The notes under the pieces were generated by a model. The model saw nothing but the letters and a program-made list of their open reading frames with translations. It had not been told where the DNA came from and searched no databases. A DNA stretch of 32,000 bases from Candidatus Jordarchaeales archaeon (GTDB lineage Archaea; Asgardarchaeota; Jordiarchaeia; Jordiarchaeales; Freyrarchaeaceae): assembly GCA_038858525.1 (NCBI GenBank), contig JAWCFL010000003.1:86088-118087 (forward strand), in the 5' to 3' direction. This document shows positions 1,712 through 28,420 of the stretch, in pieces; positions within the stretch are counted from its first letter, which is position 1; each line of letters starts with the position of its first letter. Both the position numbers and the translations under genes were made by a program.

Positions 1712-2970
1712 GATTTCTCGTTCCTCTCCTCAACAGCTTTCCTCACTGTGAACGCCATTTTGGACTGAAGACCCCACAATTCTATAAAGCCAAGAGAGGC
1801 ATACTGGTTAAACGTGGATTCTTTACCATATGTTGCCAGCGTCTTATCGTAGAGTGCATAAGGCGATGTTCTGCCTACTACTTGGGCATTGCCCTTGAAT
1901 AATTTGACCTTGACCACACCGTTAACCTTCTCATTAACTTTATTTATGAATGCTTCTAAGTCTGCCCTTAGCGGGTCCACCCATAATCCAGAGTAAACGA
2001 GAAACGTCCACTGCTCATCGATAAGTTTCTTGAAAAAGTTTTCATGTCTTGTGCACACCATTTTCTCTAAGTCCTTGTGTGCTTTAAGAAGTATTGTGGC
2101 TGCTGGGGCTTCGTAGACCTCGCGTGACTTTAAACCAACGATGCGGTCCTCCATGTGATCTATTCTTCCTACTCCGTGAGTGCCTCCGATCTGATTTAGC
2201 TTTGATATCAATGAAACTCCATCCATTTCTTCACCATTTAGAGCAACGGGAACACCTTCACTAAACTCTATTTCTAAGTATTCTGGGGACAACGGAGCTT
2301 CTTCAGGAGGTGACGTCCAAGCGTATACCTCTTCAGGAGGTTCGAGAGATGGGTCTTCTAGTGGGCCACATTCTATGCTTCTCCCCCAGAGGTTTTCGTC
2401 TACACTGTAGGGGGAGTCTATATTGACCGGGATCGGTATTCCATGTTTCTTAGCGTATTCTATTGCTTGATCCCTGCTTAGGTTCCATTCCACTACGGGA
2501 GCGATTATTTTTAGGTCTGGTGCGAGAGTGGAAATTGTGACTGCAAAGCGGACTTGGTCGTTTCCTTTTCCTGTGCAGCCGTGCGCTATGGCGTCAGCAC
2601 CTTCTCTCCGAGCGATTTCTACACCCCACTTCGCGATGAGGGGACGTGAAAGGGATGTGCTTATGGGGTAGGCATCCTGGTATAGGGCATTGGCCTTTAT
2701 GGCTGGAAAGACGAAGTCTCTAACAAATTCCTCGCGAGCGTCTATGGTGTAATGTTTTTTGACTCCCAGCCGCCGGGCCTTCTCCTCTATCTCTCTGAAA
2801 TCCTTAGATTGCCCTAGGTTGAGGGTTAGGGAAATCACGTCTGCGTCGTAGTACTCCTGAATCCATTTAAGCATACAGCTGGTATCGAGTCCTCCCGAGT
2901 ACAGTAAAACACAAAGGTCAACTTCTCCAGGCGACGCGGAAAAAGACGCTATTTTTGCAGTCAAAGCCAA
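1708..2970 (-). CDS. argG: Argininosuccinate synthase
   Basis: YSGGLDTS PP-loop, HGCTGKGNDQVRF, ENLWGRSIE, GVGRIDHMEDRIVGLKSREVYEAP; start is TTG at 2970 or 2964 (the latter better spaced from a GGTG Shine-Dalgarno). Confidence 0.97.
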   Translation of the reverse strand: MALTAKIASFSASPGEVDLCVLLYSGGLDTSCMLKWIQEYYDADVISLTLNLGQSKDFREIEEKARRLGVKKHYTIDAREEFVRDFVFPAIKANALYQDAYPISTSLSRPLIAKWGVEIARREGADAIAHGCTGKGNDQVRFAVTISTLAPDLKIIAPVVEWNLSRDQAIEYAKKHGIPIPVNIDSPYSVDENLWGRSIECGPLEDPSLEPPEEVYAWTSPPEEAPLSPEYLEIEFSEGVPVALNGEEMDGVSLISKLNQIGGTHGVGRIDHMEDRIVGLKSREVYEAPAATILLKAHKDLEKMVCTRHENFFKKLIDEQWTFLVYSGLWVDPLRADLEAFINKVNEKVNGVVKVKLFKGNAQVVGRTSPYALYDKTLATYGKESTFNQYASLGFIELWGLQSKMAFTVRKAVEERNEKS

Positions 2971-3143
2971 AGCACCTTGCTTAAAAGTTTTGCGGCTTAT
3001 CTAAAAAAAGGCGATATTTCAAAATGACGTATTTAATAAAACACTTTAGAAAGATCTAGTTCCAAACAGCACAAACGTGTAAAAGCTTAAATTATGAAAG
3101 CCACTTAAACAAAAATTAAAGTTGCTTTCTATGAGGGGAGCTA

Positions 3144-11966: not shown

Positions 11967-12434
11967 ATGCGAGACGGGGAAGTTGATGAGATTGACAGGA
12001 AAATTCTTTCGATTCTTCTTGATGATGGAAGAAAGAGTTTTAACGAGATTTCATTGATGGTTGGGGTTAGCACAGGGACTGTGGCGAATAGAGTTAGGAA
12101 GCTTATAGAGAGGGGGGTTATTAAGAGGTTTACCGTTGAACTGGATTGGAGGAAACTTGGTTTTGATGTTTTCGCCATTATTCTTATAGAAGCTGAGATC
12201 GGGAAAGTTAAGGATGTTTCTGAGGAGCTTTATTCTTATCCTGAAGTTGGTGAGGTATATACGGGTATTGGGGGGACGCCTCACATAGTAGCTTTTGTTA
12301 GAGCAAGTGAGGTTAATGATCTTTTTTCATTCATGCAGAATAAAGTAGCTGTGCTTGAAGGAATTAAGAGTGTCCGCTCAGTAATAGTTGGTGAAAGTAG
12401 GAAAAATAAGTCGAGCTTAGATTATTCCTTCTAA
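11967..12434 (+). CDS. Lrp/AsnC family transcriptional regulator
   Basis: [52 protein letters not shown] plus AsnC/RAM C-domain; ATG at 11967 preferred to GTG 11940; 18-bp convergent overlap with rpoB. Confidence 0.92.
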
Positions 12435-15400
12435 CTTTATCCTTGGGAAGATGCACATTGACATCAGTTCTTGAACGAGTAGTTTGAATGCATAACTTAC
12501 CACTGTTTTCGAGATGCGAGCCTTTTCGCCGCAAATTGGGCAGTATAGTTTTCTGTTTTGCGCTTGGACTGCTAGTGCACCGCACTCTTCGCAAATGTAA
12601 ATTTCTGTTCTGTCGGACTCGTCTACGAGTTTTTCTTTGAGTAGTAAGGCTGCACCCATTCCTATTAGGCAGTCGCGTTCCATCTCTCCGAACCTTAATC
12701 CGCCTTCTCTCGCTCTGCCTTCTGTTGGTTGTCTGGTTAGGATCTGTATTGGTCCTCTTGAGCGGGAGTGCATTTTGTCTGCTACCATGTGGTGTAATTT
12801 CTGGTAATAGACGACACCTATGAATATGTCTACCTCGTACTTTTCACCTGTAACGCCGTTATACATAACCTCTTTTCCGTTATACTTAAAACCTAGATTT
12901 TTAAGTTCTTGGCATAGGTCTTCTGGCTTTTCGCCGCAAAACGCGGTTCCATCTATTTTTCTTCCTGCTAGGCAGCCAACTTTTCCAGCGAGAGATTCTA
13001 TTATTTGTCCCAAGGTCATTCTTGACGGGAACGCGTGGGGGTTTATTATGAGGTCAGGGACTATGCCATCCTCGGTGAATGGCATGTCTTCTTGCGGAAC
13101 GATCATTCCTATTACTCCTTTTTGCCCGTGTCTTGTTGCAAACTTGTCTCCCAGTTCAGGTATTCTTTGGTCTCGGATCTTAACTTTTACAAGACGGTTT
13201 CCGTCTATGGTTTCCGTGAGTATTACGGTATCTACCGTACCTTTTTCTCCATGTCTTATGTTTATCGAAGTTTCTCTTCTTATTGGAGCTGTAACTTCGA
13301 ATTCCGCTCTTTCCTCGAGAAATCTTGGCGGGCTTGTTCTGCCAATTATCACTTCGCCTCCCTCTACTTCTGTTTCAGGTTCAACTATGCCGTCTTCAGA
13401 GAGGTGCCTGTAAACTTCAGACTGCCTGTGCCCTCTAACTTTTTGATCGGGTATTTCAAACTTGTCCTCTTGTCCTCCGGGATATTTCCTTTCTTCTGCT
13501 TCGTAGCACCTGAAGAAGAAGGAGCGGCCGATGCCACGCTCTATTGATGCTTTATTTATTATTAACGCATCTTCGATGTTATATCCTTCATAAGATAATA
13601 CAGCAACTATGAAGTTTTGCCCTGCAGGTCTTTTCTCGAAGCCGGATACCTTAGTAACTTTGGTGGTAACTATTGGGAGCTGAGGATAGTGAAGAATATG
13701 TGACCTTGTGTCCATTCGAAGTTTGTAGTTTGAAGCGAAGAGCCCTAGAGCTTGCTTGGCCATTCCCGCTTCGTAAGTGTTCCTTGGGCTTTGATTGTGT
13801 TCAGCGTAAGGTATTATTCCGGCGGAGATGCCTAGAATAGTTATTGGCGCAATCTCCAAGTGAGTGGTTTCTTCATCGATGTCTTCTGGGTTTAAAGCAA
13901 CATATACGTTCTCTTCTTCTTCTGCGTCGAGATATTCGACTATTCCTCTCCTAACTAAATCTGTAAATGACCATTCTCTTCTTCTTAGTTTCTCCACATG
14001 CTCCGATTTAAGCTTTGGAGCTCCATTTTCAACGATTATATATGGACGCCTAACGCGTCCTGCATCGCAATTGATCTGGACCTCGTTAGAGTCGTCGTAA
14101 TATGCTATGTTTACTTCATTATTAATTACGCCTGACCTTCGGAGTTCTCTAACGCGTTTTACAAATGTTTCCGGATTATCGTGGAAACCTATTAACCTAC
14201 CATTTAGAAATACCTTGGCACCTTCGACGCCAGCTATTTTGCCGAACTCTTCTATGGGATGGAGGCCGAGTTCTACCAGTTTATTTTCAACTTCACTTTC
14301 GTCTATTCCCACGGATATGTAAGCTAGTAAAGCAAGGTTTTTCACGAGGCCACAGTTGGGTCCTTCAGGTGTTTCATTAGGGCATACTTTACCCCAGTGA
14401 GTTGGGTGTAAGTCTCGGGCTTCAAAGTGTGGCTGACTGCGACTTAGTGGAGAGGTAACACGTCTAAGGTGGCTTAGGGATGCCATATAGTTTGTTCTGT
14501 CTAGGAGCTGGCTTACACCGGATTTCCCACCCACCCAGTTTCCAGTAGCGAGTGCATGGTAGAATCTGTCAGTTATTACGTCAGCGCGCACCGCGTTGGC
14601 TATGCTACGCCGTTTTCCTCTTGCCGCTATCCTTTCTAGTTGGTATTTTATGTCTTTGCACAGGTTTAGGAATGCAACTCTAAACAGGCTCAACAGTAAG
14701 CTGCCCGCTAACTTAAGGCGCTTATTAGCATAGTGGTCTTTATCGTCGGGTCCTCTTTTCTTTAATGCGAGTTCTATAAGGCGCTGGGCCATCTGACCCA
14801 AATAAAACGCCTTTTTTAAGCGGAATTCAGGCTCTGTTCCTATGTGGGGTAACAAGTACTTATCTAGAACTTGCTCTGCACGCTTGATTCTGTAGTCTCT
14901 AGTCTGGCCAACTGCAACTCGCTTTCCTATGTAATCAAGAGCATCCTCCCTTGTGGATAATGGCGAGGCTTCATCTATTGAAAGTATGAACTCGTTGAGT
15001 ATTTCCGGGTCACTAGAATCAATAGTGCTTGCCACTTGCTGATCCGTTACTAATCCAAGAGCACGTATTAAAACAACGAGAGGTATTTTCCCGGGAACTG
15101 AGGGGAAGGATACTTTTATGGTTCCGTCCCGCCTTCGTTCCATTGTTACTGGCGCCCTGAAACCTCTAGCAGTACTAAAAACCTTAGCTATGTGAGTTAC
15201 GGGTCCACTTTTATCTAGCTCCTCGACGAGAATCCTATTTGGAGCTAGGTCTTCTTGTGTGACGAGAACCCTTTCTGACCCGTTTATTATGAAGTATCCT
15301 CCAGGGTCATCTGGGTCTTCGCCTATTTCGACTAATTCTTCTCTACTCATATTTGAGAGAGGACATTTTACTGATTTTAGCATAATTGGTAATTGGCCTA

Positions 15401-15761
15401 TGTAGACTTGAACAGGCTCTTCTTCTATTTCTCTTCCGTCTCCTTTGTGTACTAAAGACATTTCTAAGTATATTGGGGCGGAGTATGTGAGATTTCTTAT
15501 TCTTGCCTCAGCGGGGGTTATAGGGTTTCGTGATCCATCAGCTTCCTTTATGGCGGGCTGTCCTACCTCTATTTTCCCCAATTTTACGTAATAATTTTCG
15601 CCTTCAATCTCTATTTTGCCTACTTCGTCCACTACGGATTGCATACCATGTTCTATAAAGTCATTGTATGAGTCAAGGTGTTGACGAACCAAGCCTTTTT
15701 CTTCGAGGAATGCTTCAACTACAGTCCATCTTTCCTCGATAGTTAAGTGGTGATCAGACAT
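12417..15761 (-). CDS. rpoB: DNA-directed RNA polymerase subunit B (Rpo2, unsplit)
   Basis: [91 protein letters not shown]-terminal CEECG...CPICG; ATG 15761 (MSDHH...) gives 1114 aa, behind GGGTGG SD. Confidence 0.98.
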
Positions 15762-15935
15762 GAAAACCACCCTTATTTTTCTAAGATTTAGGGGAACATA
15801 GCTACAATAATTTGTATGTAGGTAAGCTTTTAACGTCTCTTCTTCGAAGATGAAGCTAGGGAAAAAGGAGTATTGAAGAAGTATAAAATCTTTTTGGGAC
15901 AATAGTCTTAAGTGGAGTGGATGGTAAGGAAGGAT

Positions 15936-19388: not shown

Positions 19389-20193
19389 ATGGTTAAAAGG
19401 AAACACGGGGCGAAGAGTAAAGAGGATGAAAAAAGCCCTAATTTTCTCGGGTTATTAATAGCTTACCTGTTGTCAGCATCTATAGTAGGAATAGTGCCAA
19501 TCATAGTTCTAGTTTACGTTCTGATGGAGGTCATTAAGTTACCATTGTTCTTGCTAGTAGCTTTAGCGCCTGCATACTATGTTGCTGCAAGATGGATTTT
19601 CAATTTGACGCTGTTGTTCATGGCAAGCCGCTCGATACGGCCGGTAGAGGAGGGGGTACATGAAATGGACATAAAGAACCCAAATGTGGTTAACTGGCTT
19701 CGTAATGGAATAGTAACGTGCCTTGCACTCCACTACATAGGGTTCGAGCCGGTGTAGAGCGTTCTACACTGGGAATAAACCGTTTGGCATGCCGGGACTT
19801 GGAGCTTTAGTGCTGAGGCGACTTGGGGCAAAAATGGGGCAGGGTGCTATAGCGTCATTTGTAGCGGATCCATACATGATAGAGATGGGAGATGGTTCTA
19901 TGGCTGGCGGCGGATCCATAATTTCGGGGCATATTTTTGACAGGGGAAAACTGCGTGTAGGGAAAATTAAAATAGGGAAAAACGTGGTAATAGGAGGAAA
20001 CAGCGTAGTGTTTCCAGACGTGGAGATAGGGGACAACTCTGTCGTAGGAGCATTGTCTCTGGTGACATCGGGTACGAGAATACCGCCTAATCAAGTTTGG
20101 GCGGGTATACCTGCAAGACCGATGATGACCATAGACGGGAAGCCTTTAAGAGAAGAAAAAGATAAAAATAGCGAAGCGGGTGGCCTCAGTTAG
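19389..20193 (+). pseudogene. Membrane-anchored hexapeptide-repeat (LbH) acyltransferase split by a +1 frameshift at about 19755
   Basis: ORF1 (TM helices) stops at TAG 19755-19757; the frame open from 19741 continues into RRLGAKMGQGA...IKIGKNVVIGGNSVVFPDVEIGDNSVVGALSLV...VWAGIPA; deleting T19755 gives one 267-aa ORF. Confidence 0.7.
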
Positions 20194-20939
20194 TGCATTA
20201 AACCGGGAAAGTAATATTTTTCTCCATACGCATAACTTTCTTCTTTTCTGGCAATACCGCTTTCCTCTAAAGCTTTTAATGCACGTTCAGCCCTTTCTTT
20301 CGACCACCCAGTTTTCACCATTAATTCTTCCAACGTAATAGATCCTTTTCCACTGACTAAGCCTAATACTTCATTCTGGTCGTCATTCAACTCGGCTGGA
20401 ATAAAGACTGCAATTTCGACGCCCGACTTAAGCCGCAACAAACCAGGGATCACTCGTTTTTTCTCTAACTCCTTAAGAGCGCGCCTGACATCGTCCATCT
20501 TGACTTTATCTTTTAACCTGCCTGTGCTTGCTAAAAGGTAAACCTCTCCAAGAGATAGAACTCCGCCTGTCTCCTTACGCTTAAAGAGCGCACGTTGATA
20601 GATCAGCAAACCAAGTTTTTCATGATCCACACTTTCAGATAGGCCAAACATCTTCCTCTTTAATACATCTTCTTCTTTTACTACTTGAGTTATGACTGCT
20701 TCTGCAGGTATCCCATACTTTTCTCTTAAAAATTCTACTTCGCTTCGGAATTTAGGACTAGTTGCTATAATAACGCCGTATTTTTCGGCGATGTCGGCTA
20801 TTTTCTCTTTGACAACCATAGCGGTTTCGAGCTCCTTCTCTAGCTCCTCTAGCTTCAACTCTGCAGCTTTTTTTTCCATGCTCCTCTTCTTTTCTATTCT
20901 CTCACGTATCTCGCGAAGACCCAAACAGACCCCCCTCAT
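20190..20939 (-). CDS. vps22: ESCRT-II Vps22/SNF8 (EAP30)-like tandem winged-helix protein
   Basis: N-terminal LGLREIRERIEKKR basic helix, IATSPKFRSEV...KYGI, GGVLSLGEV, two winged helices, C-terminal YYFPGL; resembles the SNF8/Vps22 pattern; ATGA-coupled to vps28. Confidence 0.8.
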   Translation of the reverse strand: MRGVCLGLREIRERIEKKRSMEKKAAELKLEELEKELETAMVVKEKIADIAEKYGVIIATSPKFRSEVEFLREKYGIPAEAVITQVVKEEDVLKRKMFGLSESVDHEKLGLLIYQRALFKRKETGGVLSLGEVYLLASTGRLKDKVKMDDVRRALKELEKKRVIPGLLRLKSGVEIAVFIPAELNDDQNEVLGLVSGKGSITLEELMVKTGWSKERAERALKALEESGIARKEESYAYGEKYYFPGLMH

Positions 20940-21604
20940 ATGTTTAAGTCTTTAAGACGCTGCTTAAAATCACGATACCATCGATAAGCTTCATACTCCA
21001 TTTTCTTTGCATCCTCTTGCTCGAGTATCATATCTGGGGGCAAATCATTTAGCTTATCTCTCCATTTACTTGCTTCCTTGTAAACCCAGTAATCCCTTCC
21101 TTCCAAACCAGGAAAGTTTTCGAGTTGAAGGAGTAATTCATCTAAAATAGGGACAACTATATCTACCCTAGCGTAGTCTTTTAGTTGCAGGGAATCGATT
21201 AAAGTTATTAAATTCGATATAATCTCAGCAGTTCTTGAAGCAAGTGATGAAGGAGAAACTTTAAGGGCTTCTATTGGAATTTCATCTTCAGATCTAACCG
21301 TAACACCATCAGAGGCCGCTAAACGAAGTTTAGCGGAAGCACGAGGATATTTTTCAAGTATTTGATTTTCTTCAAGAAACTTTTTTAAGTCAAAGCCTTT
21401 TTCCTCAAGTTTGGAACGTATGCTTACAATGCGTTTAATATGCCATTCTAGCTGTTTCTGATACGTGCTCGCATCAATTATCCCGCTTTCATAACTATTA
21501 CTCAGCATATTCAACGTGGCTATGCATCCATAAAGCTCCCCCTCAAGCTGAAGACGCGAATCTTCAGGCTTCTGCCGCTGTTTCACCCTTTCAACAGAAC
21601 TCAT
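20936..21604 (-). CDS. vps28: ESCRT-I Vps28-like protein (N-terminal hairpin plus C-terminal four-helix bundle)
   Basis: ELYGCIATLNMLSNSYESGIIDASTY, LKKFLEE...YPRASAKL, AEIISNLITLIDSLQL...VDIVVPILDEL, KWRDKLNDL...YRDFKQRL parallel eukaryotic Vps28; ATG 21604 behind GGAGG (track start 21622). Confidence 0.82.
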   Translation of the reverse strand: MSSVERVKQRQKPEDSRLQLEGELYGCIATLNMLSNSYESGIIDASTYQKQLEWHIKRIVSIRSKLEEKGFDLKKFLEENQILEKYPRASAKLRLAASDGVTVRSEDEIPIEALKVSPSSLASRTAEIISNLITLIDSLQLKDYARVDIVVPILDELLLQLENFPGLEGRDYWVYKEASKWRDKLNDLPPDMILEQEDAKKMEYEAYRWYRDFKQRLKDLNI

Positions 21605-21631
21605 CCAAACGCCTCCAGACATTATTATGAA

Positions 21632-22393
21632 CTATAAATTCTTAAACATCTGAAGCTTCTTTGTAACGATATACCACTCTTTTTTATACTTCCTGTAGAG
21701 TCGAGTGTATTCTGTGGGGTCTATTTCACCGCTCTCAAACTTCTCTTCAAGCGACTGCAAAAGGTCTTCTATGGCTATTTTTTCACTTTCTAACTCTAGC
21801 CGCGCGTCAATCTCCAGCTTAACTGTTCTAGTGCTTGAGGCAGGAGGCTCTTGTGCTATATGGGTCGTTAAGCGACCCTTTAGCAAGGCGATTTCTTCAT
21901 CTTTCTCCTGAAGCTTTCTCTGAAGCTCCTTAAGCTGTTTCTCCAGCATGCTCACTCTTTCAACTGCTTCTGAGGCTACGGTGAGCGACTGAACGCTCTC
22001 ACTAGGAGTAACAGCAGCCATTTTCTTTGTGGGAGGTTTAAAGAGAGGACGAGGTGGTACTTTAGCAAAAGTTCCTTTGAGAGTGTTGACAACATGATAA
22101 ACATGGTATTCTGGCCTCCATTGCTCTAAAATGCTTAGATGAACTCGGCCCGTTTCTGAGTCGACGTTAGGATGATCAGTAGGAGAAACCATTCTGACGG
22201 ATGGAGGGTCGAGTGGAAAAGTTGGGGGGATCTTAATTTCAACTTCAAATTTAAGTCCTCTATACTCGCCTCTGCCCGCTATCTCTCCTCGCCATACGGT
22301 TAAGTCGCCATTCAGAGGAGAGAAGCCCTTGGCTCGTTCATACATTAGCTGTGCTTCTCGCGCAAGTATAAGTTCAAAATCTTCGCTAGACAA
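21632..22393 (-). CDS. vps23: UEV-Vps23/TSG101-like ESCRT-I subunit (inactive E2 fold, Pro-rich linker, coiled coil, steadiness box)
   Basis: WRGEIAG...EYRG..FEVEIKIPPTFPLDPPSVRM...DHPNVD..GRVHLSILEQWRP E2 fold; VPPRPLFKPP; heptad QLKELQRKLQEKDEEIALLK; C-terminal LQSLEEKFESGEIDPTEYTRLYR. Confidence 0.8.
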   Translation of the reverse strand: MSSEDFELILAREAQLMYERAKGFSPLNGDLTVWRGEIAGRGEYRGLKFEVEIKIPPTFPLDPPSVRMVSPTDHPNVDSETGRVHLSILEQWRPEYHVYHVVNTLKGTFAKVPPRPLFKPPTKKMAAVTPSESVQSLTVASEAVERVSMLEKQLKELQRKLQEKDEEIALLKGRLTTHIAQEPPASSTRTVKLEIDARLELESEKIAIEDLLQSLEEKFESGEIDPTEYTRLYRKYKKEWYIVTKKLQMFKNL

Positions 22394-22622
22394 TTTCGTC
22401 GACCCCTACGTTTCCATTAAAACTAATGATCAACCATAGAAATTAAAACTTTTGATATAGACAAAGTTATTTTGCTTTCCTCGAAAGGTAGCAGTAACAC
22501 TTATGGAAATGAAAATAGCGAGTAGGCACCTACCACCATATTACAGGTATTTTTAAATAAAAAGCGTGAAAAAGATTTTCGTATTCTTGAAAAGTTAGAT
22601 TCCTCATTTGAGGGTGGTTGGG

Positions 22623-23177
22623 ATGGGGTGCACCCCGAAAGCAGAAGGAAATATAGTAATAGGTGGGAGAGTGTATCCTGCGGACAAAGTTTTTAATGCG
22701 CTTGTAAAGGAAGGCTTCGCCGATGTGAGAGTAGAGGCAGGGGGGGTTCTCGTCATCGGAAGTGAACGCATACAACCGGTTTTTCAGAGCCTTCAGGATA
22801 AAGCTATGGCTATAACTTGCTATGGTAGCCTTGCCTATTGTTGCGGCCTGGAAAAAAATTGCGCAACCAGAGATGAAGCATTAAGACTACTAGGATTATC
22901 AGATGAAGACTACTTAAAGATAAAGAAGTACATGCATAACAAGTTTATAGAGTATGCGAGAGGGCTCTGGGGGACCCGTGATGAACAACTAGAACAATAC
23001 TTTACGAGGGATAATACCAGTTTTAACGATGGAGGAAACTATTGTTTCCATAGACGCAACATAAATAATGAAGACGGAGTTGGTTCAGAGGGGAACAAGA
23101 TATTTTGTACTTTTTGTGGAGAGACGCTTCCTTTGGATGCAAGATTCTGTAAAAGATGTGGCCATGCGTTACGATAA
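22623..23177 (+). CDS. Cys-rich protein with a methanogenesis-marker-9 (COG4008)-like motif and C-terminal double Zn ribbon
   Basis: TCYGSLAYCCGLEKNCATRDEALRLLGLSDEDYLKIK; C-terminal CTFCG...CKRCG; ATG 22623 behind GAGGGTGG. Confidence 0.6.
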   Translation: MGCTPKAEGNIVIGGRVYPADKVFNALVKEGFADVRVEAGGVLVIGSERIQPVFQSLQDKAMAITCYGSLAYCCGLEKNCATRDEALRLLGLSDEDYLKIKKYMHNKFIEYARGLWGTRDEQLEQYFTRDNTSFNDGGNYCFHRRNINNEDGVGSEGNKIFCTFCGETLPLDARFCKRCGHALR

Positions 23178-23228: not shown

Positions 23229-24227
23229 TTAAATGTTTAAATGAAGCTCGCGCCAGCGCTTGTAGTTACGTGGAAACTTAGGATATGTTATGAGCTTGGT
23301 CGCATTGAAAAAGCTGGCTATTTTTCTTATAGATTCAAATTCGTCTTCGTCGGTGAACGACCAATACATGAAGGAGATTCTCCTACGCCTAGCTGTTATG
23401 TTTCTGAGGAATAGAAGACGTTGATTTAGAGCATTAAATTCTGGCGTGTCGACTTTAGGCAAAATCGGAGACCATGCATTAAGATTTATCAGGACGTGAT
23501 TAGTTATGCCTGAAAGGGACTCTATTTCTTGTCCGAAATGCCTGTAAGCGCCATCCTGATAACCTGTTCCGGGATCAAGGTTTACTGTTGAAAGAACGTC
23601 AATACCTTTTCCCTTGACGGTTTCGTGTATCTTTGATACTGCAGCGCTAATCTTTTCAGCACGCCATTTGAACCATTTAGAGAGAACTTCTGGGTCGTCG
23701 CGCAGAGATTCAAAGCCCGCTACGAAGTCGAGGCCTGCAACTTTCGCGAACTCGTTTTTGCACGTATTACAGAAGCAGTAGTTCTCGCGGACATATGAGA
23801 GCCCCTGAAGAATTATACCTTTTATGGGAAAGTCTGACAACTCGTCCGCTATATTTGCCAAATAGCTCCAGAAAGCTTCTCTGTTTGGGCAAACAAATCC
23901 ATCTGCAGCTACGCCATCAGAATTATACGTTTTATAACTTGGGTCAACTGCATAATAATCATCGATAAACACGTTAATCACAGCATAAAGAGTGATCCCG
24001 GCTGCACCAGCAGCTTCGGCTATTGTTGAAAAGAAGTCTCCATACGTTTCATGTAGGGGAGCGTGTTTACTGTTGTAGAGGGCAAATCCACTCTCGTCTT
24101 TTGCAACTGCGGCAATTTGCCCCATGTAACCTCCGAAGTCAGCCATAAACTCATCAGCACTTTTCCCCAATGTATAGGGGTCTACAACTAAAAGCACGTT
24201 ACGAGCCAAAAGGTCACGTATCTCCAT
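23229..24227 (-). CDS. Glycoside-hydrolase-like TIM-barrel protein (GHL6/GHL10-like) with Cys cluster
   Basis: IAEAAGAAGITLYAVINV, GFVCPN, GIILQGLSY, YCFCNTCKNEF, WFKWRAEKIS; ATG 24227 behind GGTG (GTG 24239 alternative). Confidence 0.6.
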   Translation of the reverse strand: MEIRDLLARNVLLVVDPYTLGKSADEFMADFGGYMGQIAAVAKDESGFALYNSKHAPLHETYGDFFSTIAEAAGAAGITLYAVINVFIDDYYAVDPSYKTYNSDGVAADGFVCPNREAFWSYLANIADELSDFPIKGIILQGLSYVRENYCFCNTCKNEFAKVAGLDFVAGFESLRDDPEVLSKWFKWRAEKISAAVSKIHETVKGKGIDVLSTVNLDPGTGYQDGAYRHFGQEIESLSGITNHVLINLNAWSPILPKVDTPEFNALNQRLLFLRNITARRRRISFMYWSFTDEDEFESIRKIASFFNATKLITYPKFPRNYKRWRELHLNI

Positions 24228-24357
24228 TATTAACACCACGAAACTTCTACTCTTAAAAAATTAGGGAGATAACCAAATAAAAAAGTTTACTCTAATAAAG
24301 TTAAAGTCAAATAACAGGTCAAAAGATAAAAATTAGATACCTCCTATTTATGAGGGT

Positions 24358-27220: not shown

Positions 27221-28420
27221 ATGAGTTCTTTTAATTGGAAAATTCTTTTTAATGAAACTCAGAAAGAAAGGGGACGTTTAGCATTAAACTATCGTGGACT
27301 TAAGGGCCTACTGGAAGAAGCGGGATTCCAATGCATTAGACTGGTGGATTCTCCTATAACTGAAGATAAACTTGAAAAATTCGATATATTCGTAATTCCA
27401 TGCCCAGACCAGTCCAAGTTTAACCCGTCAGAAATAGATGTGATAGTGAATTTCGTATCTCGTGGAGGCGGCCTTTTAATCATGAGCCATGCAGGAGGAG
27501 ACCCTGGGTTAAGAACCAACCTGAATTCTATAGCGGAAAAGTTCGGAATATCTTTCCAAAACAATCAGGTTACAGACGAAAGACAGAATTTCGTCCATAG
27601 TAATATGCCTAAGATTACACGTTTTTCAAGCCACCCAATTACGCAGGGAATTAATGAAATATGTTATCCTGCAGGTTGTAGTTTAAAGATCGTTGGTGGA
27701 AACGCTGAAGGAGTAGCCTTTGCAAGTAAAACTGCAGAACCTCCGGAAGCGATAGTTGCTGCTACCGCTGAGTTTGGAGCGGGCAAAGTTGTGGCTTTAG
27801 GTTCATATGAAATCTTCAGAGACAGAACAGCTGGCGGATTAAACACAGCTCAGAACGCATCTTTCGCTTTAAACATTTTTAACTGGCTTAAAGAGAAGAA
27901 AATAGTTCATAAGGCTTCGCCTTTAAGAGAAACGAAAGAGGAGAGAGTTGCTATCACTTATGAGACGCCTGCAATTGCTTCGCTTGACAAGGAAACAATT
28001 ACGGAGACGCCTGGAATTACCGCGTACACCCCTCAGCTCGATAAGATTTTAATGGAGGTCACTAATTTACGAAAACGCTTTGATTCGTTCGTGAATGAGT
28101 TTAGAACGTTTGCTGCAAGAATGCTGTCCCAGAAAGGAGGGCCATCAATCGTCACGAGAATACCAACCGAGACACAAAAGGAGCAACTACCTCCGATGAT
28201 GGTCGAAGAAATAGAAGAACTTGAGGGCAGGCTTAAGTCTCTTAAAGATCAACTTGAATACATCACAATGAGGTATCAAGCAGGAGCTATAGAAAAAGCA
28301 GAGTACGCTGTTCAACGTTCAAAGTTGCGTGGAGAAATACGCACAATAATCGGAAAAATAAAGGCGCTAAAAGAGAAAGCAGGTATACCTTATGAAGAAT
28401 ATGAAATAGAGGAAGAGTGA
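27221..28420 (+). CDS. IFT52/GldG-like (class I glutamine-amidotransferase-like) domain protein with C-terminal coiled coil and steadiness-box-like hairpin
   Basis: KILFNETQKE, LEKFDIFVIPCP...FNPSEIDVIVNFVSRGGGLLIMS, HPITQGI, GAGKVVALGS..IF, NASFALNIFNWL; tail LKDQLEYITMRYQAGAIEKAEYAVQR. Confidence 0.7.
   Translation: MSSFNWKILFNETQKERGRLALNYRGLKGLLEEAGFQCIRLVDSPITEDKLEKFDIFVIPCPDQSKFNPSEIDVIVNFVSRGGGLLIMSHAGGDPGLRTNLNSIAEKFGISFQNNQVTDERQNFVHSNMPKITRFSSHPITQGINEICYPAGCSLKIVGGNAEGVAFASKTAEPPEAIVAATAEFGAGKVVALGSYEIFRDRTAGGLNTAQNASFALNIFNWLKEKKIVHKASPLRETKEERVAITYETPAIASLDKETITETPGITAYTPQLDKILMEVTNLRKRFDSFVNEFRTFAARMLSQKGGPSIVTRIPTETQKEQLPPMMVEEIEELEGRLKSLKDQLEYITMRYQAGAIEKAEYAVQRSKLRGEIRTIIGKIKALKEKAGIPYEEYEIEEE

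Follow-up and report, generated by a model that had tools for sequence, protein, structure and literature searches.

We identified a three-gene operon in the genome of a Jordarchaeial Asgard archaeon that very probably constitutes one transcription unit, encoding a whole recognisable ESCRT-I (Vps23 and Vps28) together with the ESCRT-II stalk subunit Vps22. Read as open reading frames, the genes UEV-Vps23, Vps28 and Vps22 follow one another in this order and occupy positions 22393-20190 on the minus strand of the window (the whole stretch of DNA that was analysed, 32,000 nucleotides). The original prediction of three co-directional, tightly spaced genes agrees with the reading frame coordinates, which leave a first gap of 9 nt if Vps28 begins at ATG 21622 and of 27 nt if it begins at ATG 21604. 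The features of the locus, in the order of transcription, are:

22442..22456, minus strand: ATCAAAAGTTTTAAT, a box resembling a BRE/TATA promoter element, roughly 50 nt ahead of the TTG at which UEV-Vps23 begins
21632..22393, minus strand: UEV-Vps23 gene (first open reading frame, 22393-21632), 253 aa, TTG start
22139..22141, minus strand: CAT codon of His85, the residue that aligns with the catalytic cysteine of E2 enzymes
21612..21616, minus strand: Shine-Dalgarno-like motif GGAGG, 7 nt ahead of the Vps28 ATG at 21604
20936..21604, minus strand: Vps28 gene, 222 aa; the frame is open back to ATG 21622 (longest reading 21622-20936, 228 aa)
20930..20937, minus strand: Shine-Dalgarno-like motif GAGGGGGG, which overlaps the stop codon of Vps28 and precedes TTG 20924 by 5 nt
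20190..20924, minus strand: Vps22/EAP30 gene, 244 aa from TTG 20924; the frame is open back to ATG 20939 (longest reading 20939-20190, 249 aa)
20148..20170, minus strand: T-rich tract after the Vps22 stop, within the 3' end of a convergent hexapeptide-transferase gene

The host genome is 92.7% complete, and a profile search of it returned a single VPS28 match and a single significant EAP30 match. The family matches of the trio are not due to chance, since none of 14 control genomes searched with the same Pfam families passes the cut-off. The closest named homologues belong to Jordarchaeales and Freyarchaeota metagenome-assembled genomes. All three reading frames are uninterrupted and agree over their full length with profiles and homologues, so that tRNA-type mini-introns, which were considered for these genes, are not required.

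The operon is an ordinary further example of a gene order known in Asgard archaea, as the order of the trio, with vps22 co-directed with vps23 and vps28, has already been described there (Makarova 2024, PMC10936438). It adds a clean annotation, from a hot-spring Jordarchaeial archaeon, of the machinery from which ubiquitin-dependent membrane sorting in eukaryotes is believed to descend, and the practical gains include the corrected start codons of Vps28 and Vps22.

The three proteins and their families

The first protein consists of a UEV/UBC fold (residues 1-115), a proline-rich disordered linker (approximately 116-138), a stalk helix (139-178) and a steadiness-box hairpin (188-252). It is matched by the Pfam profiles UQ_con (6e-19), UEV (7e-6) and Vps23_core (PF09454, 2.8e-5), the first of them above its cut-off. 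The Vps23_core score of 24.5 bits is slightly below the Pfam cut-off of 26.8; all three profiles are matched by each of the 15 aligned family members, with Vps23_core E-values of at most 1e-3 and a best value of 7e-7. The AF2 model has a mean pLDDT of 83, with helices at 139-178, 188-220 and 226-252 and values above 90 within the hairpin. The steadiness box is assigned from Pfam and this predicted model, because a phmmer search of residues 125-253 against the PDB returned coiled-coil noise only and Foldseek with the whole model returned E2 folds only.

The Vps28 protein is covered nearly end to end by its profile (PF03997, 1.7e-18, 67.5 bits against a cut-off of 24.5, profile positions 3-188 of 188). 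In the AF2 model an N-terminal helical hairpin or core (13-96) is joined by a disordered linker (97-114) to a C-terminal four-helix bundle (118-219). The C-terminal domain superposes on the solved structures 2j9w, 2j9v and 2g3k (Foldseek TM 0.78-0.88, rmsd 1.3-1.9 A), the first of which was also found in a PDB sequence search, and the N-terminal part matches chains 2caz_E, 2f6m_D and 6vme (TM approximately 0.7, probability 0.94-0.99).

Vps22 begins with a charged N-terminal helix that is followed by tandem winged helices. The EAP30 profile (PF04157) matches at 4e-18 with 66.3 bits against a cut-off of 26.8, over profile positions 5-215 of 219. The best PDB match is human SNF8 (1e-13 over 225 residues), with VPS36 weaker at 4e-6, and a GLUE domain is absent because 244 aa leave no space for one. 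Pfam profiles, solved-structure matches and predicted folds thus agree on the UEV-Vps23, Vps28 and Vps22 assignments that had been made earlier from the sequence.

In eukaryotes, ESCRT-I is composed of Vps23/TSG101, Vps28, Vps37 and Mvb12, and ESCRT-II of Vps22, Vps36 and two copies of Vps25. The host Vps23 has the identical order of UEV, proline-rich linker, stalk and steadiness box, Vps28 has both domains of its eukaryotic counterpart, and Vps22 aligns with human SNF8 over 225 residues. However, Vps37, Mvb12 and Vps36 are lacking, the genes lie in a prokaryotic operon, and the host UEV resembles ordinary E2 enzymes more closely than it does the UEV of TSG101, by Pfam, PDB sequence match and Foldseek alike. 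Compared with the Asgard UEV-Vps23 family (asCOG005829/asCOG007313; Lu 2023, bioRxiv 10.1101/2023.07.25.550441), in which UEV, stalk and steadiness box also occur in one chain, there is no substantive difference; the host has a histidine at the former cysteine position, a site that is variable in the family.

This resemblance to E2 enzymes raises the alternative that the first gene encodes an active ubiquitin-conjugating enzyme, so that the cluster would belong to a ubiquitylation cascade and not to ESCRT-I. UQ_con is indeed the strongest Pfam match, the HPN motif is retained (residues 74-76), and the homologues carry the NCBI name 'ubiquitin-conjugating enzyme E2'. However, the whole protein contains no cysteine. 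In an ungapped alignment to UBE2K, GRVHLSIL faces GAI(C92K)LDIL and places His85 opposite Cys92, and among the homologues this position is occupied by H, R, K, Q, N or S and in none by C; a role for His85 as a stand-in catalytic residue is ruled out, as the position is not conserved. Additionally, the fold ends after helix 2 and continues into the stalk and steadiness box, and a canonical E2 sits beside ubiquitin and E1 elsewhere in the host genome. An active enzyme is therefore extremely improbable, and given the missing cysteine and the histidine at the active-site position the protein is predicted to be a ubiquitin-binding variant, which corrects the public name carried by its relatives. 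The third gene might likewise be read as a winged-helix transcription regulator of the operon (MarR/TrmB-like) in place of an ESCRT-II subunit, and residues 191-235 do give weak MarR_2, HTH_24 and IclR matches (E 4e-4 to 0.01). These are all below their cut-offs and span one winged helix, whereas the EAP30 profile is matched end to end, SNF8 is the best solved relative, and the gene stays behind Vps28 across Asgard families, which makes a regulator very improbable.

Start codons, putative promoter and likely terminator

The core of the box upstream of the operon, CAAAAGTTTTAAT, recurs ahead of UEV-Vps23 in each of the seven relatives' loci with enough upstream sequence to show it. The 15-mer ATCAAAAGTTTTAAT occurs once in the genome, and we infer that the box would act as the operon promoter. 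It is not shared with Vps4 or Snf7, whose upstream regions contain no more than an A/T-rich stretch of generic promoter-like character. The TTG start of UEV-Vps23 is seen in eight relatives' loci and is kept across the class.

Both downstream genes appear to begin later than their longest reading frames. Every Vps28 homologue aligned begins at the residue equivalent to ATG 21604, and the arrangement of GGAGG, spacer and ATG is also present in the sister family. Similarly, all 13 aligned Vps22 homologues begin with MG[IL]R at the codon equivalent to TTG 20924, which is TTG in the three genomes of the host's family, whereas the sister family has ATG there. In a genome of the same genus the equivalent site reads GGGAGG and then TTG, and upstream of that TTG there is no in-frame ATG. 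On these homologue starts, Vps28 most likely begins at ATG 21604 and Vps22 at TTG 20924 behind GAGGGGGG, with spacers of 27 nt and 11 nt. The two genes had earlier been described as coupled by an ATGA overlap. The overlap of ATG 20939 with the Vps28 stop codon TGA does exist in the sequence, but it is probably incidental and ATG 20939 is probably not the true start of Vps22. Short spacers with Shine-Dalgarno-like motifs could allow coupled translation of the three subunits, consistent with their co-assembly. The T-rich tract that follows the Vps22 stop is likely an archaeal oligo-T terminator.

Placement of the partner genes

The remaining components of the pathway are all found in the host genome, on other contigs. 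Vps4 and Vps25 are on contig 21, with Vps25 (PF05871, 8e-12) following Vps4 by 17 nt; ESCRT-III (Snf7) is on contig 54; and a set of ubiquitin, E2 and E1 is on contig 53. The host thus has no 10 kb neighbourhood that unites ESCRT-I/II with Vps25, Vps4, ESCRT-III and the ubiquitin, E1 and E2 genes. A distance of 56 kb separates the trio from Vps4-Vps25 in a genome of the same genus (G003). In G005, a closed genome from the class, an E2 gene lies 15 kb from the trio, Vps4-Vps25 approximately 370 kb and ESCRT-III 377 kb. The order UEV-Vps23, Vps28, Vps22 is kept in all nine class genomes that carry the trio, one of them interrupted by a contig end. The trio had been proposed to be a stand-alone unit, and as the same split is present in a closed genome this is not an artefact of assembly; the arrangement is real and class-wide in Jordarchaeia.

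The Asgard module vps23-like, vps28, vps22-like (Makarova 2024, PMC10936438; Hatano 2022, PMC9192718) contains the same three families in the same co-directional order as the host. In both, vps22 travels with the ESCRT-I genes and vps25 with vps4, and Vps36, Vps37 and Mvb12 are missing. However, in all five other Asgard families sampled Vps4-Vps25 is 2-7 kb from the trio, whereas in the host's class the partner modules are separated from it by 15-370 kb or sit on different contigs. Where DNA was read in these other families, the trio adjoins ubiquitin (with or without E2 and E1), and the ubiquitin gene is divergent. In Odinarchaeum LCB_4 a ubiquitin-ESCRT supercluster is present at a single locus, in contrast to the dispersed genes of the host, and Jord/LC30 has been listed among the lineages in which UEV-Vps23 and ubiquitin genes are unclustered (Lu 2023, bioRxiv 10.1101/2023.07.25.550441).

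Thus the one-locus arrangement of other Asgard lineages is dispersed in this whole class, while the trio and the Vps4-Vps25 pair have each survived as units, which supports the published idea that both modules are units of co-assembly. The original prediction had taken the stand-alone trio to suggest separate regulation of cargo recognition and membrane scission. Separate regulation of this kind would not be peculiar to the host: Vps4-Vps25 is on the strand opposite to the trio in four of the five other families, and is therefore a separate transcription unit there too. The divergent neighbour at 22608-23177 (MM9-like, zinc ribbon) and the 336-aa gene at 23229-24239 were rejected as specific ESCRT partners because they form a conserved pair of their own across Asgard families, including one (22 genomes) without a Vps28 match.

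A possible sorting pathway

Biochemical studies of Asgard proteins (Hatano 2022, PMC9192718; Lu 2023, bioRxiv 10.1101/2023.07.25.550441) let us infer how the encoded proteins may act. Marked cargo would be recognised by the cysteine-free UEV domain through non-covalent binding of its ubiquitin. The N-terminal hairpin of Vps28 would associate with the stalk and steadiness box of Vps23 and, since Vps37 is lacking, probably in a ratio of two Vps23 per Vps28. ESCRT-I would then dock on Vps22, which in the absence of Vps36 would take its place, probably by forming a homodimer, and would recruit Vps25, encoded beside Vps4. Vps25 would in turn nucleate ESCRT-III, and Vps4 would recycle it. In other Asgard lineages, binding of ubiquitin by the UEV, a Vps23-Vps28 complex, Vps22 dimers and a contact between Vps25 and ESCRT-IIIB have been described (Hatano 2022, PMC9192718). 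However, Odinarchaeal Vps22 is monomeric and no ESCRT-I/II bridge was found there (Hatano 2022, PMC9192718), so the docking step is not universal. A complex prediction for the host Vps22 with Vps28 residues 112-222 scored 0.20 against a mark of 0.32 in a run without controls, a value that counts neither for nor against their binding.

The proteins could also be true ESCRT-I/II homologues that serve as a ubiquitin-independent scaffold, for example to position ESCRT-III during division of the cell or the release of vesicles, the UEV then having another ligand. The trio is unlinked to ubiquitin genes in the class (also Lu 2023), and Asgard cell biology links ESCRT-I/II to no defined process (Hatano 2022, discussion). 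However, micromolar or tighter binding of ubiquitin is known for the UEV domains of UEV-Vps23 proteins from several Asgard lineages (Lu 2023; Hatano 2022), the host genome retains the full ubiquitin, E2 and E1 set, and ubiquitin divergently adjoins the trio in other families, and we consider such a scaffold unlikely. A variant of the ubiquitin-dependent pathway, which we judge decidedly unlikely, is that an ancestral ubiquitin-ESCRT supercluster broke up in Jordarchaeia, that only the trio stayed together, and that the headpiece is completed not by a second Vps23 but by a lineage-specific steadiness-box protein. A candidate would be the GIFT-domain protein encoded at 27221-28420, 5 kb from the trio, whose presence in the headpiece would connect an IFT52-like module with the recognition of ubiquitin. 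The linkage of this gene to the trio is seen within one family only, and in the sister family the two are 97 kb apart.

Protein families of the UEV-Vps23, Vps28 and Vps22 genes

[quoted passage not shown]

22393-20190, minus strand: three back-to-back ORFs of 253, 228 and 249 amino acids (UEV-Vps23, Vps28 and Vps22)

Profile searches with Pfam matched the first protein to UQ_con (6e-19), UEV (7e-6) and Vps23_core (2.8e-5), the second to VPS28 (1.7e-18, spanning profile positions 3-188 of 188) and the third to EAP30 (4e-18, positions 5-215 of 219). None of 14 control genomes rose above the cut-offs for these families. The 2.09-Mb assembly, which is 92.7% complete, contains one VPS28 match and one significant EAP30 match, with no second EAP30 gene found in the profile search.

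The UEV-Vps23 protein contains no cysteine at all. In an ungapped alignment to UBE2K the HPN motif is retained and His85 occupies the E2 catalytic position. Across 15 UEV-Vps23 homologues the equivalent residue is variable (H, R, K, Q, N or S), and we therefore attach no special meaning to His85. The public name "ubiquitin-conjugating enzyme E2" is wrong, as the protein lacks cysteine and the catalytic position is C in none of the 15 homologues. Both the family memberships and this loss of the thiol are direct observations. All 15 family members match Vps23_core. In the AF2 model (mean pLDDT 83), residues 1-115 adopt an E2-like fold; a Pro-rich linker predicted to be disordered comes next, then a helix of 40 residues and finally a helical hairpin.

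In the predicted model of Vps28, a disordered linker connects the N-terminal hairpin/core to a four-helix bundle. Vps28 C-terminal domains make up the top four Foldseek matches to this model (TM 0.78-0.88, rmsd 1.3-1.9 A), and the Vps28 chains of the yeast and human ESCRT-I cores are also among the matches. A separate Vps28 C-terminal-domain gene has been described for some Asgard genomes (Makarova 2024, PMC10936438). It is absent from this trio locus; one locus of another family (L031, G036:C17) carries such a gene of 95 aa at 2840-3127, between full-length Vps28 and Vps22.

Vps22 matches human SNF8 (1e-13 over 225 residues) and, more weakly, VPS36 (4e-6). A same-order relative has a second Vps4_C match and a second EAP30-like gene (305-aa frame) approximately 4 kb apart (G007:C84:2345-6538). 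This extra pair, which is on another contig, was seen in no further genome of the class.

Gene starts and operon layout

The original prediction described a 9-27 bp gap followed by an ATGA overlap. In alignments with relatives, all Vps28 homologues start at the Met of ATG 21604, which is preceded by GGAGG at a distance of 7 nt, and the spacer between UEV-Vps23 and Vps28 is therefore most likely 27 nt. The ATGA overlap of Vps28 and Vps22 is present in the sequence, but the starts of the relatives indicate that it is most likely incidental. Each of the 13 Vps22 homologues in the alignment, which come from Jord-, Loki- and Thor-type sources, opens with MG[IL]R at the codon equivalent to TTG 20924. 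This family's three genomes have TTG at this codon (20922-20924), as against ATG in the sister family, and upstream of it the same-genus genome lacks any in-frame ATG. The sequence GAGGGGGG lies 5 nt ahead of the TTG and overlaps the Vps28 stop codon. The Vps28-to-Vps22 spacer is thus likely 11 nt.

The TTG start of UEV-Vps23 (22391-22393) is kept in 8/8 relatives' loci, and the Vps28 start is always ATG. This pattern of start codons may tune subunit ratios. Upstream of the first gene we identified a conserved element:

22442-22456: box ATCAAAAGTTTTAAT, approximately 50 nt upstream of the UEV-Vps23 start

The core CAAAAGTTTTAAT recurs in each of the seven loci for which the printed upstream sequence is long enough, and the box resembles an archaeal BRE/TATA element. 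Beyond the Vps22 stop codon lies a T-rich tract. Judged from these sequence features, the layout of starts, spacers, box and T-tract is that of a single operon.

Dispersal of ESCRT modules in Jordarchaeia

The remaining ESCRT and ubiquitin genes were sought in the rest of the genome and located on three contigs:

contig 21: Vps4 (MIT-AAA-Vps4_C) and Vps25, 17 nt apart, neighboured by lysyl-tRNA synthetase, a lipid synthase gene and cbiQ
contig 54: Snf7-type ESCRT-III gene
contig 53, at its start: ubiquitin, E2 and E1

The downstream partners are thus present. By analogy with published systems (Hatano 2022, PMC9192718; Lu 2023, bioRxiv 10.1101/2023.07.25.550441), the UEV domain would bind ubiquitin on cargo, the headpiece would be built from Vps28 and probably two copies of Vps23, ESCRT-I would dock on Vps22 standing in for the Vps22/Vps36 pair, and Vps25 would then connect to ESCRT-III and Vps4.

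The nearest named homologues are from Jordarchaeales and Freyarchaeota MAGs. The class comprises 11 genomes; the order UEV-Vps23, Vps28, Vps22 is found in all nine having the genes, one of them broken by a contig end, and Vps4 adjoins Vps25 in 9/9. The trio is 56 kb from Vps4-Vps25 in the same-genus genome (8 contigs). A closed 3.6-Mb genome has the trio at 1.894 Mb, an E2 at 1.910 Mb, Vps4-Vps25 at 1.523 Mb and ESCRT-III at 2.27 Mb. In five other Asgard families, by contrast, closed or near-closed genomes place Vps4-Vps25 2-7 kb from the trio. The stand-alone trio that had been proposed is therefore real and class-wide, rather than an assembly artefact.

Separate regulation had also been proposed. 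The two modules would be separately transcribed, but this is not special to the present genome: Vps4-Vps25 is on the strand opposite the trio in four of the five other families, which argues that separate transcription is the rule in Asgard. Ubiquitin, often with E2 and E1, is divergent from the trio in five fetched loci of four other families, and Vps25 is convergent after Vps22 in the three fetched other-family loci long enough to show it.

Lu 2023 (bioRxiv 10.1101/2023.07.25.550441) defined the UEV-Vps23 family and described UEV-Vps23 and ubiquitin genes as unclustered in Jord/LC30. Given the published descriptions, the locus is a further example of a known arrangement; new here are the corrected gene starts, the absence of cysteine, the conserved putative promoter box and the inter-module distances in closed genomes.

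Neighbouring genes

The other genes in the window encode RpoB, a nuclease, a T2SSE ATPase, a hexapeptide transferase, a zinc-ribbon protein, a 336-aa protein and PolB. Four features of the window are:

12417-15902, minus strand: rpoB, a single unsplit 1161-aa gene, in this window standing apart from other RNA polymerase genes
22608-23177, plus strand: 189-aa protein with a partial methanogenesis-marker-9 match (TIGR03277, 1e-10) and a C-terminal zinc ribbon
23229-24239, minus strand: 336-aa protein with no Pfam or PDB match
27221-28420, plus strand: GIFT-domain protein; its 5-kb distance from the trio is confined to this family (3 genomes)

The genes for the 189-aa and 336-aa proteins form a convergent pair that is adjacent or within approximately 2 kb in many Asgard families, and the 336-aa protein is present in 89 of 121 sampled genomes. 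The pair is often 0.2-14 kb from the ESCRT-I/II trio, yet it is not tied to it, and is kept even in one family (22 genomes) without a VPS28 match. In the sister family the GIFT-domain gene is 97 kb from the trio and approximately 6 kb from each of two genes, a second E2 gene and the 336-aa gene. At a locus of another Asgard family (L029, G021:C1, 14119-18180), PolB lies beside the MM9-like gene and is 1353 aa, compared with 873 aa here; an intein or other insertion would fit this length.
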